Origin: Patescibacteria group bacterium
Lineage (GTDB): Bacteria > Patescibacteriota > Minisyncoccia > Phycocordibacterales > SBAW01
Length of the DNA: 25,309 nucleotides
Assembly: GCA_030916835.1 (NCBI GenBank)
Contig: JAUPWA010000040.1
Coordinates: 1 to 25,309, forward strand
Reading direction: 5' to 3'
The translations under genes and the position numbers were made by a program. The notes under the pieces are model-generated. The model was not told where the DNA came from and did not search any database. It saw only the letters and a list, made by a program, of their open reading frames with translations. How positions within the stretch are numbered: the stretch's first letter is position 1; each line of letters opens with the position of its first letter. Below are positions 578-14,814 of the stretch, piece after piece.

Positions 578-2572
578 CTAGTGTCCAAAGAGATTCGTTA
601 CATAGTGCCATAGTGCACCAAGGGTGTGTGCGATTGAGCTGCCTATTGATGCGCGCGTTGTGATTACTGCTGCAGCTTGTGTTTGCGGTGCTACTTCTTG
701 TGTTGCTTGAGGTTCAGGTGAACTTTTTTTAGCGTGCACGATGCGAAGTGGGGGAACGGTGGTGGTTGGCGTGCTGGTCGCTTTTTGTAGCATTGTGGTC
801 AAAGTTGAAGTGCTGATGGGTGCCACTTCAGCCAACAGGAGAATTTGAGGCGGTGTTGATGTTGCTTCAAGGGTAGAGGTTGCTGCGAGGGTGGTTGATG
901 CAAAGGGTGCGCCCCCACCGCCCTGCGCGCCACTCATGCTTGTTGGTTTTTGAAAATGGTGTAATTGAATCCACGAAGTGCCTTGTAGTACTGGCAGTGC
1001 ATACGCGGTAGCCCAGATGCGGTTATCCTCAGTGTCAGACAGCTCCCCAAAGCCGCCATCACTTTGCTGCATAGAGAGTAGACAGCTAGAGGCTGTTTTG
1101 CCAAGAGCTATTTGTGCCATAGCTACCCAGCTGGTGCTAAATACATTACCCGCACAACCTGCGGCATCTGTGTGTGCATCAAGGAATTCAGCAGCCTTCT
1201 TGAGAGCGCTAGAAACAGCATCGATTGAGGTGAGTGGCGTGAGGGCTTGGATTGCCGCTGCAGTTAAGTCGACACTGTCCCACGAGCCGTTTGCTTCTTG
1301 CTTTGAAAGAATATACACAACGTCTTGCTGTATGAGTGGATCACTCGCACTATACCCGGCATGGGTGAGCGCTATGAGGGCGAAGATATCATCGTTCACT
1401 TCCTGTGCATCGCCAAATTGCGTACCGTCAAAACTTGCAACAATGGGTGCAATGAGCCCATAGGAGTGTGGGTCAATGGAGAGGGCCTCGAGCGCCATGG
1501 CGTGTCGTTGTGTGTCGGTGAGGCTTCGGGGAGTGAGCTGTTTTTCATACGCGACCAGCTGCTCTATTAAGGGCTCGTTTTGGTATGGTGCTAGCGCTAT
1601 GGCCGCCCAGTCGGTGATCATATCTGAGCCGACGCGGCCGTCCTGTAGGTGGGAAAGTAAAAATGCTTTGGCGCCCGCTACCGCCTCAGTGTTTGTGTGT
1701 GGGGGCTGTGCATACTGTGCGGGCGATGGGCCGCCGCCCGATGAGGCGCCTCCTGTCGAGGTGTTTTCTGTAGGCAGTGTGGGGGTAAGGGTGAGGTGGT
1801 TGGATGGTAAAAACCCATCTTTAGTCGCATACAGGTCAGTTGATACTAAGGGTGCGGTAAAAACAGCATCGCCCTGTGCATCTGCAGCAACGAGCTCATT
1901 GCCAAGATGGAGTGTACTTGAAGCTGCTGGCAACCACGCCGCTTCGTAGTTAGCGTCGTAGGCAAAGTGGGTGATGTGTGCGGTGGTGGTGGCGCCCGCA
2001 TACGGCGTGGCTGAGTCCATGGTTATGCGCAACGGGAACACCCCGAGCGTGACAAGGAGCGTCTCTCCATTGTGTACTTCGTGCTTATTGAGCGCTGTTG
2101 CACCCAGAGCGTGGTTGCTCAACCAGGCCCAATAGGTGTTTGTTGCATAGTCGTTCGCAACCCCGCCAGCGGAGTCAAGAAATGCGTCATCGCCATACCA
2201 CGCCCAGGTGGGTAGGAGTCCTGATTGTTCGAGCGCACAGTAACCGCTCACCGTACTTGTGCCGCTCGTAGGGGAAATCGGACATGCAGTAACTGTAAGG
2301 GATTGATTAAAAAGTGTCGTTGAAGCAGTTTCGACATCGAGGGTGATGGTAACCGGTTCAGGTACCACGCTAGTGTCGGTTGCTATGACACTAGAAGTTG
2401 TGGAAGCTTGCGCCTCAGTGGTGGTCGCGTCTGTGGTGCTTGCTATCGCGGTGTCTACCTGTGTTGGTGCTGTTACTTCGGTAGATGTGGCAGCAGTGCT
2501 GTCGGTCTCTTGAGTCGAGCTTGTGTCATCCGCGTGCGCATGCGGCGCGCACATGAGTGCGAGCCCGCACAT
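578..2572 (-). CDS. Large secreted surface protein: Ser/Thr-rich linker + DUF4430 (transcobalamin beta-like) domain + prenyltransferase/squalene-cyclase-like alpha/alpha repeat domain; putative cobalamin-binding protein
   Basis: Within ORF 578..2800. Signal-peptidase-like site AHA|DD. DUF4430-like segment FLDSAGGVAND...TYWAWLSN...GETLLV. Repeats of the type YILSKQEANGSW, TAAAIQAL, SMQQSDGGF, TAYALPVL. C-terminal T-rich stalk and amphipathic tail. Start uncertain (ATG 2572, TTG 2587 or ATG 2653). Confidence 0.7.
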   Translation of the reverse strand: MCGLALMCAPHAHADDTSSTQETDSTAATSTEVTAPTQVDTAIASTTDATTTEAQASTTSSVIATDTSVVPEPVTITLDVETASTTLFNQSLTVTACPISPTSGTSTVSGYCALEQSGLLPTWAWYGDDAFLDSAGGVANDYATNTYWAWLSNHALGATALNKHEVHNGETLLVTLGVFPLRITMDSATPYAGATTTAHITHFAYDANYEAAWLPAASSTLHLGNELVAADAQGDAVFTAPLVSTDLYATKDGFLPSNHLTLTPTLPTENTSTGGASSGGGPSPAQYAQPPHTNTEAVAGAKAFLLSHLQDGRVGSDMITDWAAIALAPYQNEPLIEQLVAYEKQLTPRSLTDTQRHAMALEALSIDPHSYGLIAPIVASFDGTQFGDAQEVNDDIFALIALTHAGYSASDPLIQQDVVYILSKQEANGSWDSVDLTAAAIQALTPLTSIDAVSSALKKAAEFLDAHTDAAGCAGNVFSTSWVAMAQIALGKTASSCLLSMQQSDGGFGELSDTEDNRIWATAYALPVLQGTSWIQLHHFQKPTSMSGAQGGGGAPFASTTLAATSTLEATSTPPQILLLAEVAPISTSTLTTMLQKATSTPTTTVPPLRIVHAKKSSPEPQATQEVAPQTQAAAVITTRASIGSSIAHTLGALWHYVTNLFGH

Positions 2573-3044
2573 AATCAAAAGCGCCAAAAAGAAGTGCGGT
2601 GTAGAGTATGTCGCCCGCGAGCATCGAGAGAAAGAAAGGAAAACCGAGCCCATAACAGTAGAGGAGTCCTGCGAGTGTTTTTGCATACCAAGGTGAAAAC
2701 AGCCAGACGGCAAAGTTAGTGATAAGAAAGAAACCAAAAGACGATCCGCACACAACACCGCCCATCCCCCACACACGAACAAAGCGCATAGAGTACCCAA
2801 CCATGCCTATAAGTGCAAACGATACATACACCGAGGTGAGTATGCGCCAGTCATAGAATCCAATAACTGCATCCACGATGAGCATGGCTGAGAGGGGGAT
2901 AACAACTGCCCATATGCGGCCAAGGTCGCGCCCTGCGCGCAGTGCCACCGCGCTCATGGGTGTTGAGTTTGGGATATGGGGCAGTAGGCGACCAAGGAGG
3001 CCAAAACCAATAAGTCCCAAGATGGTGAGTAGTTTGTTGCGCAT
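2526..3044 (-). CDS. DUF6580-family putative transport protein (ECF S-component-like multi-pass membrane protein)
   Basis: About 5-6 hydrophobic helices; family-like motifs RLLPHIPNSTP, FFLITNFAVW...WY..T..GL..CY..G.PF and GDILYT..LFG. ATG at 3044 lies 2 nt after the upstream stop. Confidence 0.7.
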   Translation of the reverse strand: MRNKLLTILGLIGFGLLGRLLPHIPNSTPMSAVALRAGRDLGRIWAVVIPLSAMLIVDAVIGFYDWRILTSVYVSFALIGMVGYSMRFVRVWGMGGVVCGSSFGFFLITNFAVWLFSPWYAKTLAGLLYCYGLGFPFFLSMLAGDILYTALLFGAFDYVRARTHVRAACARG

Positions 3045-3046
3045 AT

Positions 3047-3528
3047 CTAGAATGTCGATGGCGCAAAGATCCACTCAACCGTATCGCTAGGTTGTAGTGT
3101 GTATGAAGCGGCCCCCACCTGAGGTATAACGCCGTTTACTTTGTATTGCCAGTACTTATGTTCAACGCCATTTTTGAGTCCATGCATACTCACCACTAAT
3201 GTGCCGAGTCCCGCGTACTCTTTGGTGGTGAGTTGGAGTGCTGTGTCGCTCATGGTAAGGGTTTTGAGTACTGACAGTGCAGTGTCACCTGCCGTAATGG
3301 CTACCTGTTTTTGCGCATAGAGCCCCATGATGGTAAGCGAAATAGTTTGCTGTTTGGTGGCGCTCGGTGACTCTGTGGAGGTGGTCGAGATGGCTGTTTC
3401 TTCGTGATGCGCGAGCGTGGGAGCGTAGACTTTGTGCGTTTTGGGGGCACTATAGGCAACAAGCCCGAGGCATACTGTAGCACAGCTGCGCAAGTGAGAA
3501 GAGCGCCCAATTTTTTTTGTGTAGTCAT
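3047..3528 (-). CDS. DUF4430 domain-containing membrane-anchored protein (putative B12-binding), with an apparent 1-nt frameshift near 3478
   Basis: C-terminal T-A-L-S-V-L...Y-A-G-L-G-T-L-V-V-S-M-H-G-L-K-N...K-Y-W-Q-Y-K-V-N-G...V-G-A..Y..Q-P-S-D-T-V-E-W is typical of DUF4430. ATG 3528 (MTTQKKLGALLTCAAVL) is in a different frame from the domain ORF 3047..3493, and one extra base at 3478/3479 would fuse them. Confidence 0.75.
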
Positions 3529-3552: not shown

Positions 3553-4089
3553 TTAATAGGTTGGCGCGGACTCCTGCTTGCCGGCGCTGGCGGCAGTATA
3601 CCGCGCAAGTGCGTAGAGTAAACTAGACAGACGATTAAGATATGCGTATGTCGGGTCAGTAAGTGCTTGCATGCTGCGCGCATGTATCACCGCACGCTCT
3701 GCGCGCCGTGCAAGCGCGCGTGCAAAGTCAAATTGTGCGCTGCGCACTGTTGCTCCAGAGATAAGGAAGGAGGTGGGAGGCTGTACGGTGCGCATGAGTG
3801 CCTCGATGCGTTCCTCAGCCCAGGTCACCTCTTCATGCGAAAGTGATTTTGGTGAGCCAGCAAGCGCTGCTTGCACTATGAAGAGATGTTCTTGCACACC
3901 GCGCACCATAGCAGAGGCCTCTGCATCGGTAGGCTCCTCCTGACACTGTGCGTAGCACAAGCCTAAGAATGAATTGAGTTCATCGAGTGTACCGAGCGCA
4001 TCATACAAGGCGCTATCTTTTGGGAAACGCTCTTTAGTACCAAAGAGCCCGGACTCTCCGGAGTCGCCTTTGCGGGTGTATATACTCAT
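3553..4089 (-). CDS. pduO: ATP:cob(I)alamin adenosyltransferase, PduO type
   Basis: Hallmark motifs IYTRKGDSG.SGL, LGTLDELNS.LG, R.LARRAER, YLNRLSSLLY.LAR. Confidence 0.93.
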   Translation of the reverse strand: MSIYTRKGDSGESGLFGTKERFPKDSALYDALGTLDELNSFLGLCYAQCQEEPTDAEASAMVRGVQEHLFIVQAALAGSPKSLSHEEVTWAEERIEALMRTVQPPTSFLISGATVRSAQFDFARALARRAERAVIHARSMQALTDPTYAYLNRLSSLLYALARYTAASAGKQESAPTY

Positions 4090-4095
4090 ATATAC

Positions 4096-6423
4096 CTAGG
4101 CGGAGGTTGTTGTTTCAGTGGGTACTACCATGTCGACATCACACACACCACCCACGCACGCGAGCTCTTTCTTTTGCTCCGTCTCGTCGGTACGTTCATA
4201 CATAATCAGTTTTGAGTAGTCGATAGTGGGGAAGTTAGCTACCAGCTCATCATATCGTTTTTTGTCTATCGTTTCGTACGGAGCCAAGCGATAGATGTGG
4301 TCAAAACGCGGCAAGAAGGAAAGGCCGCCAATAATGTCCCAGTTTTTTTGCACCCAATCGACAACACCTATCCACTCATCTTCACCAACCGAAATGGTCG
4401 CTGAAGGATTATGCTCCGTAAAGTTGAGCTTGATCATCTTCCAGTATTCGAGCTGCTCGAGTGCGCTAAAGTCGTCTTTAAACTTTGCACTATCCGGTGA
4501 CTCGACAGGAAACTCCAGCACATAGGTTGTGGCGTTTTCAGTGTTTTGACCAACCTCAGGATAGTAGGGTACGCCCTGGTCCTTGAGCATCTTAAAGAGT
4601 GAGTCAGTGGCAGAGATACGTACGCGGCGAATATAGTATTTTGCATGGCGTGGATGAATACCCGAGGAGCAGTTGAAGGTTTGCGAGACAGTGCCGGAGG
4701 GCTTAACTGCGGTCACCGACATGGCAGGAGCGATACCAAAGCGCTTCGCATAATTTTCGTTTGCTTTGACAACTAGGTCACGCATAGCACGCAAAGTCTC
4801 AGGGTCTCGCGCCGCCGCGCTGTCCCATTGGCCGGTCACGGAGACACCAAGGAGCGCTTCTTGCCTGCAGTGCTCGGCCCACTCAGGACTAATATAGTTA
4901 AACTTTGTGAGAGACGCTTGGTAGGTACCCAAGAGTGCTGCAAGACGCGCCTTTCGTAAAAGCGTTTCAAAGGTGTCGTGTGAGCGTGCGATAACTTCGG
5001 ATAAATTGCAGAACTGTTTGGACTGCAAAATGATCTCGCCACACGGGTTAGTGCCGATGGGACCATGTACCACCCTGTCACCATTGAGAAACCCTTGCTG
5101 CTTAAAATTTTCAAGACGACGTGTTGGTAGTGTGTTAGATAGTGACCCGCGATTGAAGATACCGCGCTCACCCGACTGGCTCTTCATGAGTGCGACCCAC
5201 TCCTCCATATGTTCAGTGTTCGTGGGGCGGCTTTCATAGACAGCAGAGTTGTTTGCAACCATGCGATAGGGCTCAGAGAGGTAAAACTGACCCTTCTTTG
5301 CATCACGTAACTCAATGTCATCAAGGTCGGAGAGGCTGATCATTGCGGTGCGGCGTACTCCGCCTGCAACGACGCACTCACCAATTTTGCAGATGATGTC
5401 ATGCACATCAATAGGGCGCAAGCGCCGGCCTTGGCGACGTAAAATCTTTTCGCGTGCAAACTCCAAGAGTGAGCGTAGTGGCTCGGGGCCTGAAGCTTTG
5501 CCACCCATGACCTTTAGCCGTGTGCCGGCAGGTCGCACGCTCGAGAAATCAAAATCAACATCTTTGCCGCTATACCACGTTTGCAAACCCAAAGTAAGCG
5601 CGTCACACCAACCCTCTTTAGAGTCGGCGACCATATGTGTCGGCAACTTCTTTTTTGATTGTTTTTGAATTTGAGGGAGCTGCTCGACGTTTTGGCTCTC
5701 AACCGCAAAACCGACACCGCAGCCTTGCATCGAAAGATACATAATTTCGGCAAAGTCGGTGAGTTTAGTGGGGGCTATGAAGGTGCAATTGTACGCACAG
5801 GTATTGCAGCGGCGTGCTGCTTCGCCTGCAAATTGCATGAGGCGCATCGATGGCATCACCTCTTGGCGCAAAATAGCATCACGTACTTCGTTATACTCCG
5901 CATCGCTCAGTTTCTCACCCAAGTTTTCACGCATGAATGCGATATAGCGGTCGACCGTCTCGATCCATGTCTCGCGGCGATTTTCAGACTCTATCCAGCG
6001 TGCATACGTGCGCAGGTAGACAAACTCACCCAACGGATTACCACCGAAATATTGTTTGCTGGCGGTCGCCAATGCGCGTAGGCGCTCAGGCACCTCACCT
6101 TGCACGTAGCGCATCTTTGAGCGCTCGGCGCGGTAGAGGATGTATGCCTTGGCGGTAGCGGGGAAGTCGTGTGCCATGAGTTCGCGCTCTACCTCGTCTT
6201 GCACGCCTTCAACCGTTGGTGTGAATGATGGGTTTTCGGTAAGCGATTCTTCAAGATGTGTCGTCACCGCATGCGCCACCTGCTCAGGAGCTCCCTCAGT
6301 AAACTCCCCCGCAGCCTTCATTGCTTTGCCAACAGCAACAGCGATTTTAGTGCTATTAAAAGGTACCCGTGCACCATCGCGTTTCAAAATGGCTTGCAAT
6401 GCGGGTTGCTGTTTTAGCTGCAT
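4096..6423 (-). CDS. nrdJ: Class II (adenosylcobalamin-dependent) ribonucleotide reductase, RTPR-like, with N-terminal ATP-cone
   Basis: ATP-cone (KRDG.RVPF...KI...AKAYILYR); motifs YNCTF, GGVRRTAMI, TNPCGEI (thiyl-radical Cys), FCNLSE, VKPSGTVS and C-terminal ACVGGVC redox pair. Adjacent pduO and no class I beta or class III activase gene nearby. Confidence 0.92.
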   Translation of the reverse strand: MQLKQQPALQAILKRDGARVPFNSTKIAVAVGKAMKAAGEFTEGAPEQVAHAVTTHLEESLTENPSFTPTVEGVQDEVERELMAHDFPATAKAYILYRAERSKMRYVQGEVPERLRALATASKQYFGGNPLGEFVYLRTYARWIESENRRETWIETVDRYIAFMRENLGEKLSDAEYNEVRDAILRQEVMPSMRLMQFAGEAARRCNTCAYNCTFIAPTKLTDFAEIMYLSMQGCGVGFAVESQNVEQLPQIQKQSKKKLPTHMVADSKEGWCDALTLGLQTWYSGKDVDFDFSSVRPAGTRLKVMGGKASGPEPLRSLLEFAREKILRRQGRRLRPIDVHDIICKIGECVVAGGVRRTAMISLSDLDDIELRDAKKGQFYLSEPYRMVANNSAVYESRPTNTEHMEEWVALMKSQSGERGIFNRGSLSNTLPTRRLENFKQQGFLNGDRVVHGPIGTNPCGEIILQSKQFCNLSEVIARSHDTFETLLRKARLAALLGTYQASLTKFNYISPEWAEHCRQEALLGVSVTGQWDSAAARDPETLRAMRDLVVKANENYAKRFGIAPAMSVTAVKPSGTVSQTFNCSSGIHPRHAKYYIRRVRISATDSLFKMLKDQGVPYYPEVGQNTENATTYVLEFPVESPDSAKFKDDFSALEQLEYWKMIKLNFTEHNPSATISVGEDEWIGVVDWVQKNWDIIGGLSFLPRFDHIYRLAPYETIDKKRYDELVANFPTIDYSKLIMYERTDETEQKKELACVGGVCDVDMVVPTETTTSA

Positions 6424-6439
6424 ATATAAACTGTGTTAC

Positions 6440-6482
6440 ATTGATAAATGTCTACTTATGATACTCATAGACAAGTATCTAT
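6440..6482. promoter_or_regulatory. Two 16-bp pseudo-palindromic boxes in the nrdJ/arsR divergent intergenic region (candidate ArsR operator)
   Basis: ATTGATAAATGTCTAC (6440-6455) and ATAGACAAGTATCTAT (6467-6482) match at 11/16 as direct and 12/16 as inverted repeats. Box 2 has perfect ATAGA/TCTAT arms and overlaps the arsR ATG. Confidence 0.55.
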
Positions 6483-6852
6483 GAATCCGCAGCCACGAAA
6501 AAAGATGGGGATAAGGACCCCGAGAACAAAAAAAGAGCATGGTAAAGAGTTGACGCACGCTCGCCCCAGTTGGGTAGCGAGCGGCGAGGAGGAGCTCTGC
6601 CCCGAGTGTTTTAAGGTGGTCGGGGATCGCACACGATACAAGGTTGTGTGTATGCTTGGTAAAGAGCCGACAGGGCTTAATGTAAAGCAACTTACTGAAA
6701 AGCTACAGCTTAAACAGCCGACCGTGACCCACCATCTTAATATTCTACGATCAGTTAATGCGGTCGCCTCTGCGGACCTGGGGCGCCAGCGTGTGTATAC
6801 GCTCAATCGGGATGCTCACTGTTTTGAGGACTGCAAGATCCCGTACGCCTAA
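6481..6852 (+). CDS. ArsR/SmtB-family winged-helix transcriptional regulator, Cys-rich
   Basis: F..VGDRTRYKVV.ML.....LNV.QL...L.LKQPTVTHHL.IL.....V.....G..RVY.LN. Has CPEC before helix 1 and HCFEDC at the C-terminus. Start may be ATG 6481 or 6505. Confidence 0.85.
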   Translation: MNPQPRKKMGIRTPRTKKEHGKELTHARPSWVASGEEELCPECFKVVGDRTRYKVVCMLGKEPTGLNVKQLTEKLQLKQPTVTHHLNILRSVNAVASADLGRQRVYTLNRDAHCFEDCKIPYA

Positions 6853-6902: not shown

Positions 6903-7140
6903 CACTTTGGGGTGTGCTGCAAATCGCCGTAAGGCGTTTGAACCCCAGAGTGAGGCCCGGAGTCTGGAGTACCCCCCACTCCAGCTCCGGGTTTTGCCTC
7001 AGGTGTCGGTGCGCCTTTCGTAGTGAGGTGTTTTGTAGGCTTTGCAGCAGTTTTACAAGATTCCTCTGTCTACGGCCCCCTGACTGGTTTACTGCCGGCG
7101 CATGCGCCGCGTAAACACTAACAGTCAGGGGTTTCTTTTT
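6903..7140 (+). ncRNA. Unassigned highly structured RNA (five consecutive hairpins, ending in a hairpin + U-tract)
   Basis: Hand-folded stems: 6903-6952, 6952-7000, 7001-7016, 7019-7074, 7077-7131. At least six G.U pairs and a GUAA tetraloop favour the + strand. No convincing ORF in the interval. Confidence 0.6.
7077..7140 (+). terminator. Intrinsic terminator-like long hairpin with U-rich tail
   Basis: CCCCTGACTG (7077-7086) pairs perfectly with CAGTCAGGGG (7122-7131); inner GTTTAC/GTAAAC and CGGCG/CGCCG stems; followed by TTTCTTTTT. Confidence 0.55.
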
Positions 7141-12802: not shown

Positions 12803-14020
12803 ATGAAGATACGAGGAATTAGTGCGCGTGAGATTCTTGACTCTCGCGGGACCCCAACTGTTGAGGTGGTGGTGACGCTCGAGGATGGTGTCCAAGGGAC
12901 TGCGTCAGTACCATCAGGAAAGAGTACCGGTTCGCGCGAAGCACATGAGTTGCGCGATGGTGAAGCGCGTTTTGGGGGCAGGGGTGTGCGCAAAGCGGTC
13001 GCTGCGGTTGAAGGTGAGATTCTGAATGCACTCAAAGACAAAGACTTTTCGCAGCAAGAGCTTGACCATGTGCTCTGCGAGCTTGATGGAACGCCAAACA
13101 AGTCGAGACTTGGCGCAAACGCTCTATTGGGAGTGTCGCTCGCATGTGCACGCGCAAGCGCGCTCTCTCAGGATGTGCCCCTATATCGCTATATCGCAGC
13201 GCTCGCCAAGACTACGCCGCGCATGCCGCAACCTTGTTTTAATATCATCAACGGCGGTGCACATGCTGACAGTGGTCTCCATATACAAGAGTTCATGCTC
13301 ATCCCTGCGGGGGATAGTGTTGTGCAGAAGATTGAGCGCGCTGCAGCAGTGCAAGAGGTTCTCTATAAGCTCATCAAAGCTCGCGGCCTAGCGACGGGCG
13401 TGGGAGACGAAGGTGGTTTTGCACCTATGCTGCCAAGCAACGCGGCAGCGCTCGACCTGTTGGTTGAAGCAATAAACACTGCTGCTGTTGAGGCGCAGTT
13501 TGGGATCGATGCGGCAGCAAACTTTTTTTACAAAGACGGGCTCTATGAGATTGATCCGCAAGAAAGGCACGACCGCACCGAACTGCTTGCGTGGTATGAG
13601 GAGTTGGTTGCTAAGTATCCCATCGTTTCCCTCGAGGATCCGTTTGCTGAAGATGATTGGGATGGGTTTGTTGCAGTTACTAAAGCGCTTGGTGAAAAAA
13701 TCCGCATTGTGGGTGATGATTTGCTCACGACCAACCCTGTGCAGATACAATTGGCGGGCGAGCGCCGTGCCACCAACACAGCACTCATTAAGCCAAACCA
13801 AATCGGCACCCTTTCTGAGGCGCTCGACGCGTGCACAAAAGCGCGTGAGAGTGGTATGATGCTGTTTGCCTCGCACCGCTCAGGGGAGACAAATGATGAC
13901 TGTATCGCTGACTTTGCAGTTGGTGTTGGTGCAGAGTATCTAAAAGCGGGAGCGCTGACGCGCGGTGAGCGAGTCGCAAAATATAATCGTTTAATTGCTA
14001 TAGAACAAGAATTGTCATGA
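12803..14020 (+). CDS. eno: Enolase (phosphopyruvate hydratase)
   Basis: [74 protein letters not shown]. Confidence 0.96.
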
Positions 14021-14814
14021 GTACCCGTCCTGCGCTAGTTGTCACTATTGGGCCTGCATCAAGTGGTCGCGAAACTTTTGTAGCGATGGTGCATGCGGGG
14101 CTCGATATCGTTCGTTTTAATTTTGCATGGTCGACCAATGAAGAGCGTGCAGCGCAAATCGCTATGGTCCGTGATGTTGCCCGTGAGCTTGGCCGAGAAA
14201 TAAAACTTTTGCAAGATTTACCTGGACCTCGCGTGCAAACCGGTGCTTCACATACCTATGATCAGTCAGTCGAAACACTGCTAACAGAGGAAGATGAGCG
14301 CTCCATTGCTTTTGGAGTTGAGCAGCAAATAGAGTATCTGGCGCTTTCTTTTGTGGGAAATGCAAAAGATGTCGAAGATGGTAAGGCGCTTATCAAAAAA
14401 TATAACGGCACACAAAAAGTAATTGCGAAAATTGAGCGTAAGGTAGCGATCGACCATATCGATGAAATTTTGGCAGCTGCAGACGGGCTTATGGTGGCAC
14501 GCGGCGACTTGGGTAGCGAAGTACCGCTTGAAGAGATCCCTTTTATCGAAAAGATGCTTATAGAGAAAGCGAACGCTGCTGGTAAGCCTGTTATTGTGGC
14601 GACTCAGATGCTTCTTTCAATGACGGAGTCACCCACGCCCTCACGCGCTGAGGTGACCGATGTTGCCTGGGCGACCCTCTTGGGGGCCGACGGCGTTATG
14701 CTTTCTGAAGAAAGTGCGAGCGGGAAGTACCCCACTGAGGCAGTGACCTATCTGGGTAGGATAGCTGCCCGTGCGGCTGAACATGCGCAAGAGCGCACTA
14801 TACTACTATCATGA
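14017..14814 (+). CDS. pyk: Pyruvate kinase, truncated form (A-domain barrel only)
   Basis: [43 protein letters not shown]. Only 265 aa. Confidence 0.9.

Follow-up and report, generated by a model that had tools for sequence, protein, structure and literature searches.

The window examined here, a stretch of 25,309 nucleotides that forms one contig of a 634-kb Patescibacteria genome (84% complete), contains a divergent gene pair. On one side is arsR, and on the other nrdJ, the first gene of an operon that runs the opposite way (Table 1). The nrdJ product scores 307.8 bits against NCBIfam TIGR02505, slightly below the cut-off of 340. The end of nrdJ is separated from the start of pduO by 6 nt, and the four genes found 3' of nrdJ on the same strand follow with small gaps or overlaps; no convincing terminator was found inside the operon, which assembles nrdJ with pduO and with candidate B12-capture genes. 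The DUF4430 gene accompanies nrdJ and pduO in most of the related class II loci described below, and the 740-aa toroid gene, the last of the same-strand cluster, has homologues in other class II loci. A cluster of this type is described in Lactobacillus delbrueckii, where nrdJ-cbrS-cbrT-pduO comes with ECF-CbrT (PMC5997447). According to the excerpted text of that source, it also groups an RNR that depends on B12 with an adenosyltransferase and with components for B12 uptake, whereas the membrane and binding parts in our window come from the DUF6580, DUF4430 and toroid families, and the excerpt mentions no ArsR-type regulator (PMC5997447). On its own side of the spacer, arsR is alone in the window: nirK, the next gene in many relatives, is missing, and no remnant of it was found in the window or in the genome.

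Table 1. Features of the nrdJ-arsR locus (positions in the window).
Feature	Positions	Strand	Basis
740-aa protein, weak alpha/alpha-toroid match, start codon uncertain	578..2800	-	Cobalamin_bind / SQHop_cyclase_C, below cut-offs
DUF6580 membrane protein, candidate B12 importer component	2526..3074	-	PF20221 (1.1e-37); synteny
DUF4430 protein, candidate extracellular B12 binder	3047..3493	-	PF14478 (1.8e-13)
pduO-type ATP:cob(I)alamin adenosyltransferase	3553..4089	-	Pfam Cob_adeno_trans (3.5e-42); TIGR00636 above cut-off
nrdJ, class II (RTPR-like) adenosylcobalamin-dependent RNR with N-terminal ATP-cone	4096..6423	-	Pfam ATP-cone, RNR_Alpha, RNR-II insertion domain
Box 1, ATTGATAAATGTCTAC, imperfect 6-4-6 palindrome, 16 bp	6440..6455		Consensus match
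Predicted overlapping -10 hexamers, TATGAT (+, arsR) and TATCAT (-, nrdJ)	6457..6463		Consensus scan only
Box 2, ATAGACAAGTATCTAT, 6-4-6 palindrome, 16 bp	6467..6482		Consensus match
arsR, 123-aa Cys-rich ArsR/SmtB-type winged-helix regulator	6481..6852	+	HTH_5 and NF033788 matches
Terminator-like hairpin followed by TTTT, 3' of arsR	6956..6995	+	-38.4 kcal/mol, z-score -4.3

The start codon of arsR is fixed by its orthologues as the ATG at 6481, so that the two start codons are separated by 57 nt (6424-6480), the gap given in the preliminary description of this DNA. The ATG at 6448, which opens the longest reading frame, was rejected as it falls within box 1 and is not conserved. The arsR product scores above the cut-offs of Pfam HTH_5 (PF01022; 34.5 bits, cut-off 22) and NCBIfam NF033788 (59.3 bits, cut-off 55), its top Foldseek matches are SmtB, CzrA and HlyU, each with a probability of 1.00, and its nearest solved structures are SmtB, CzrA, HlyU and BigR. 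Judged by profiles and by predicted fold, it is an ArsR/SmtB-type regulator, to which we will refer as ArsR. In the AF2 model (mean pLDDT 81), a basic disordered tail (residues 1-21) is followed by the canonical core from helix 1 to strand 2, and the wing is followed only by a helix of 4 residues (113-116), residue 123 being the last. Missing from this model is the long helix 5, with which helix 1 usually makes the ArsR/SmtB dimer interface, and the truncation is common to all the orthologues compared. This counts against the binding as a dimer that is proposed below.

The five cysteines that had been pointed out earlier are indeed present, and all of them are invariant in the orthologues. Numbered from the ATG at 6481, C40xxC43 comes just before helix 1, helix 2 holds C57, and the C-terminus carries H113-C114-x3-C118. 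The sites described in the ArsR/SmtB family are the helix-3 CxC, the helix-3/N-terminal site, the helix-5 DxH...HxxE, the helix-5/C-terminal site and the helix-4/C-terminal site. None of these was found in ArsR, whose helix 3 carries no Cys; the only part of a described site is the D-A-H half of the helix-5 site, which can be aligned by eye with the start of that site in CzrA (D84-x-H86), just beyond the point where the HMMER alignment stops, and the second half of the CzrA site has no counterpart. On the residues present, the layout of this putative sensor site is new for the family. In ArsR dimers, helix 5 lies next to the beginning of helix 1, so that a Cys4(His) centre built from the two ends of the chain, possibly across subunits, is plausible. 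C57 corresponds to the helix-2 Cys position of BigR, SqrR and HlyU, which are also structural neighbours. However, ArsR reaches 30.1 bits against NF040642 (BigR) where the cut-off is 155, no long helix 5 is there to offer a partner Cys, four more Cys are invariant, and there are no sulfide-oxidation genes near arsR. A persulfide sensor of the BigR/SqrR kind was rejected on that score and on the missing helix-2/helix-5 Cys pair.

The spacer has a G+C content of 26%, against 50% for the whole window, and it holds the two 16-bp pseudo-palindromes noted previously, 27 bp apart from start to start and mutually inverted about position 6461. The consensus then proposed matches these two sites, with zero mismatches, and no other site of the 25-kb window; the twin arrangement is unique to this spacer within the 634-kb genome, in which the further boxes are solitary partial matches only. 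The final two bases of box 2 are the A and the T of the arsR ATG. A consensus scan predicts two back-to-back promoters, for arsR and for nrdJ, with -10 hexamers that fall between the boxes, and comparable AT-rich -10-like spacers (CATAAT/TATTAT for example) are found at orthologous loci. Box 1 lies over the -35/spacer of the putative arsR promoter and over the region in which the nrdJ transcript is predicted to begin; box 2 lies over the predicted start of the arsR transcript and over the -35 element of the putative nrdJ promoter. With this placement, each box would mask the -35/spacer of one promoter along with the other promoter's start region.

Orthologues of ArsR, of about 120 aa, are found in 230 species-representative genomes, the family comprises 659 clusters at 90% identity, and close relatives are labelled Paceibacterota, Parcubacteria or Patescibacteria. 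Among 37 aligned diverse members, not only the five Cys but also H113, the residues of the recognition helix and the RPxWV motif show no variation. The boxes are conserved as well, and both are kept in 68 of 73 loci. Across loci they follow the consensus ATWGAY-N4-RTCTAT, with an information content that is high in the half-sites and about zero in the centre, their spacing is mostly 26-27 bp, and in 71 of 72 loci box 2 runs into the arsR ATG through a TCTATG junction, at offset 14 counted from the first base of the box. Of 61 relatives, 12 contain the perfect palindrome ATAGAY-N4-RTCTAT: all 10 that carry an ArsR orthologue, and two others, whose lone matches lie inside or between unrelated ORFs and were put down to chance. 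In five near-complete relatives, the motif is confined to the arsR-RNR spacer, plus one stray match. An RTPR-like nrdJ is present in 24 of the 61 relatives, mostly without ArsR, and ArsR control is thus optional. The idea that every nrdJ of the lineage is paired with ArsR was therefore rejected, as most of these nrdJ genomes have neither ArsR nor boxes, and no box was found upstream of nrdJ in any of the five ArsR-less genomes examined.

These patterns bear on a reading in which the palindromes are promoter elements or the sites of another factor, ArsR being a mere neighbour, or in which ArsR is an activator. The boxes are AT-rich and overlap -35-like and start regions, as promoter elements would, and the sign of a regulation is not readable from sequence alone. 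However, a dyad symmetry around an information-free centre, the strict co-occurrence of boxes and arsR across 61 genomes, and the lack of boxes before nrdJ in the five genomes without arsR that were examined all speak against it, as does the location of both boxes inside the predicted RNA polymerase footprint, which is the geometry of a repressor. We hold this reading to be improbable.

The neighbourhoods were compared in a sample of 80 arsR loci with their flanks. An RNR operon is directly divergent from arsR in about 60 of them, so that the adjacency is not a peculiarity of this genome, and in 8 additional loci an RNR lies within 5 kb. The divergent RNR is of class II in about 36 loci, of class I in 11 and of class III in 13. 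Class II loci carry nrdJ plus B12 genes; class I loci carry an ATP-cone-NrdB fusion, then NrdA, a PNPOx-like gene and a ferredoxin-reductase-like gene, whose products may be partners in the activation of the radical cofactor; class III loci carry nrdD-nrdG. A true copper nitrite reductase gene (nirK, TIGR02376 above cut-off) follows 3' of arsR in 41 of the 74 loci that could be assessed. Extra intergenic boxes were found before nrdD in two genomes (G003 and G008), before nirK and before the PNPOx-like gene in locus L106, before pduO/DUF4430 in L082, and, in the congener G001, as twin boxes of its own for the homologue of the 740-aa toroid protein. From these sites, the regulon appears to be small, local and coherent, with arsR itself, nirK, accessory RNR operons and the genes that supply their cofactors. 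Along the ArsR tree, at least 21 changes in the class of the adjacent RNR are counted, and the ArsR proteins of L060 (class II) and L072 (class III) are sisters and nearly identical.

The preliminary description had proposed a metal- or redox-sensing repressor, possibly for cobalt, that would control both dNTP synthesis and B12 uptake. The joint control agrees with the shared conserved boxes and with an operon that includes B12-capture genes; the cobalt part was not supported. A repressor sensing cobalt or cobalamin, which would match nrdJ and B12 uptake to the cofactor supply in the place of a riboswitch, has in its favor that the operon of the window is entirely related to B12, that no cobalamin riboswitch is seen in the window or the genome, and that Cys/His-rich ArsR proteins are able to bind Co(II), as is established for the family. 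Nevertheless, the same protein and the same boxes also stand beside RNRs of classes I and III, enzymes unrelated to B12. As RNR operons of all three classes, often with nirK, are found with one regulator and one operator, the signal would not be specific for cobalt or B12, and the repeated class switches, down to near-identical ArsR proteins, make any cofactor-specific signal unlikely. Together with the G001 locus described below, this leaves the cobalt reading very little probability.

The same description had suggested that ArsR replaces NrdR and the cobalamin riboswitch, and here the negative observations were sound, but the replacement was not supported. In most bacteria, all the nrd operons are controlled by NrdR, a repressor made of a Zn-ribbon and an ATP-cone. 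No NrdR-type box was found in the window when up to 3 mismatches were allowed to an NrdR consensus, and no nrdR gene (TIGR00244 above cut-off) was found in the 84%-complete genome or in any of the 61 relatives, in which the matches are the ATP-cones of RNRs. ArsR resembles NrdR in that both are transcription factors dedicated to nrd genes, whose promoters hold their boxes in pairs, in class I, II and III alike. However, it has no ATP-cone, no Zn ribbon and no TIGR00244 match, and no relation to NrdR in sequence or fold; its box is unlike the NrdR box, it gives no sign of nucleotide sensing, only some members of the lineage have it, and it does not cover the other RNR of the genome. This second RNR is of class I, with an NrdA that carries an ATP-cone (a 960-aa open frame, C14:~220-2880 of genome G000) and an NrdB on a separate contig (C70:~270-1240), and no ArsR boxes were visible in the upstream sequence inspected on these two contigs. 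Since NrdR was found neither with nor without ArsR, most of the 61 relatives showing neither, and since the second RNR is boxless, ArsR is not a general stand-in for NrdR. From this distribution, it belongs to an optional, accessory RNR module.

As for the riboswitch, the spacer of 57 nt is shorter than a cobalamin aptamer, no Rfam family reached its gathering score in the window, and no RF00174 or RF01482 match was found in the genome at E <= 0.01. A different arrangement is observed in G001, where two abutting ArsR-type boxes (positions 2605-2636) precede a full-length AdoCbl riboswitch candidate and overlap it by a few bases (contig C15, L107:2605-2772). This candidate matches RF01482 with 43.3 bits and an E value of 5e-7, below the gathering score of 50, and lies upstream of a gene for a 430-aa protein that joins an alpha/alpha-toroid to PG_binding_1. 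This looks like a stacked control of a B12-capture gene by protein and RNA. Twin boxes directly before a probable AdoCbl riboswitch would mean that the RNA does the B12 sensing and that the ArsR switch is layered on top of it, which argues both against the replacement of the riboswitch and against a cobalt or cobalamin sensor.

We thus consider it quite probable that ArsR is a dedicated local repressor of its own gene and of the divergent nrdJ operon, which would answer through its cysteines to a signal other than cobalt. As to mechanism, a local autorepressor acting on back-to-back promoters is the most likely one. An ArsR dimer would bind each 6-4-6 palindrome through its ATWGAY half-sites, the two palindromes flanking the shared -10 region of the arsR and nrdJ promoters. 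With both boxes occupied, the -35 and start regions of both promoters would be covered, and arsR as well as the nrdJ-pduO-DUF4430-DUF6580-toroid operon would be switched off, and with the latter the B12-dependent synthesis of dNTPs and the B12 salvage. A signal received at the invariant CxxC ... C ... HCxxxC would then release ArsR from the DNA. More likely than cobalt, as this signal, are a redox cue, NO, O2 or the condition of a metal or Fe-S centre bound by ArsR.

Two ways of filling in this signal have to be weighed. In the first, an Fe-S cluster or a redox-labile metal at the Cys4(His) centre would be needed for dimerisation and DNA binding, and its destruction by NO or O2 would derepress the accessory RNR and nirK, in the manner of NsrR, FNR or ArnR on an ArsR fold. 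The four Cys and one His that are invariant at the two ends of the chain of a protein that misses the normal dimer helix are consistent with this, as are the frequent nirK 3' of arsR and the box that nirK has of its own in L106. RNR radicals are known targets of NO, and NsrR and ArnR, answering to NO, regulate nirK/aniA, hmp and nar genes. ArnR and SufR are precedents for NO-responsive regulators that carry a [4Fe-4S] cluster on a winged-helix protein (PMC12343034). A winged-helix repressor with a centre held by Cys, next to a gene for nitrite reductase, would be a possible functional analogue of NsrR, ArnR and SufR, which however belong to other families and have other layouts (Rrf2 for NsrR, a separate C-terminal sensor domain in ArnR); moreover, an RNR as the main target is foreign to those regulons, and the cluster in ArsR is hypothetical. 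Against this reading, CxxC and CxxxC are just as typical of a structural zinc site, and a simple O2 sensor fits poorly with O2-requiring class I and O2-sensitive class III RNRs placed under one switch. We regard it as a possibility to be kept in mind, on the low side. Somewhat more speculative is its extension to the NrdR-less Patescibacteria, in which an ArsR-fold switch indifferent to RNR class would use an Fe-S or redox-labile metal centre of Cys4(His) type in place of helix 5 for dimerisation, and the nitrosative or oxidative loss of that centre would turn on a back-up RNR, the genes for its cofactor supply and nirK; we offer it tentatively.

In the second, ArsR would be a classical sensor of Zn, Cu(I), Ni or Cd, with a new site made of the D-A-H remnant and of the N- and C-terminal Cys, and the metal would release it from DNA. 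Among solved proteins it is closest to CzrA and SmtB, two Zn sensors, with which it shares the winged-helix core (28-31% identity from helix 1 to strand 2), the first half of the helix-5 metal site (D-A-H, aligned by eye) and, as predicted here, a palindromic operator over the regulator's own promoter; in addition, copper is required by nirK. But helix 5 is cut to about 4 residues, with no counterpart of H97 and H100 of CzrA, and a basic N-terminal tail and the invariant CxxC, C57 and HCxxxC are added. CzrA and SmtB have genes for metal efflux or metallothionein as targets, whereas those of ArsR are RNR operons and nirK. There is no conserved partner for metal efflux or storage, the partners being RNRs with three different metal requirements, and the whole-genome motif scans gave no transporter targets. 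A classical metal sensor is thus unlikely.

To our knowledge, RNR expression is under tight regulation in all organisms studied, and NrdR is the known dedicated bacterial regulator. In a set of relatives where NrdR is found in none of 61 genomes, part of the lineage has a tiny regulator with a near-invariant operator that accompanies all three RNR classes. Accessory RNR cassettes are swapped at a fixed regulatory anchor, and such an exchange bears on how dNTP synthesis is adapted to oxygen and to cofactor supply. In the full-text literature on ArsR together with RNR, nrdJ, Patescibacteria or nirK, neither this operator nor an RNR regulator of ArsR type was found described, and a look-up of ArsR in the ESM Atlas returned generic ArsR clusters only. 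With a protein of 123 aa and a DNA switch of 57 bp, the way in which uncultivated bacteria of ultra-small size regulate their genes becomes directly testable. If a redox or NO switch indifferent to RNR class were true, it would link nitrite and NO chemistry to the supply of DNA precursors in genomes of about 600 kb.

Several other observations were made on these loci. The class I operon, as seen at L019:8290-12348 and also in L029, L031, L035 and others, has its ATP-cone fused to an NrdB of 430 aa, while its NrdA, of 556 aa and of the NrdE-prime type, is devoid of it. In the class III loci L024:3211-8409 (G003) and L110:1-2732 (G008), arsR is at the end of the nrdD-nrdG cluster or away from it, and the box or boxes precede nrdD rather than arsR; the cluster of G003 includes cysteine desulfurase-like and reductase-like genes. 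In L084, about 1.5-3.4 kb upstream of arsR, nrdJ is matched in two pieces (query residues 7-461 and 407-755) that lie about 900 nt apart, which suggests a duplication within the gene or an insertion, for example of an intein or mobile element; a second perfect box followed by an ATG is found near pduO, about 4.1 kb upstream. Among the source assemblies (L027-L106), many bear the title 'uncultured Candidatus Saccharibacteria', and others whose loci are near-identical bear the names Paceibacterota, Adlerbacteria, Kaiserbacteria or Parcubacteria; the former title looks like the default of a pipeline and not like a real placement. Finally, elsewhere in the window, the pyruvate kinase ORF at 14017-14814, which lies between enolase and a histidine-phosphatase-family gene, has only 265 aa, with its barrel domain matched in two stretches, and this gene may be shortened or split.
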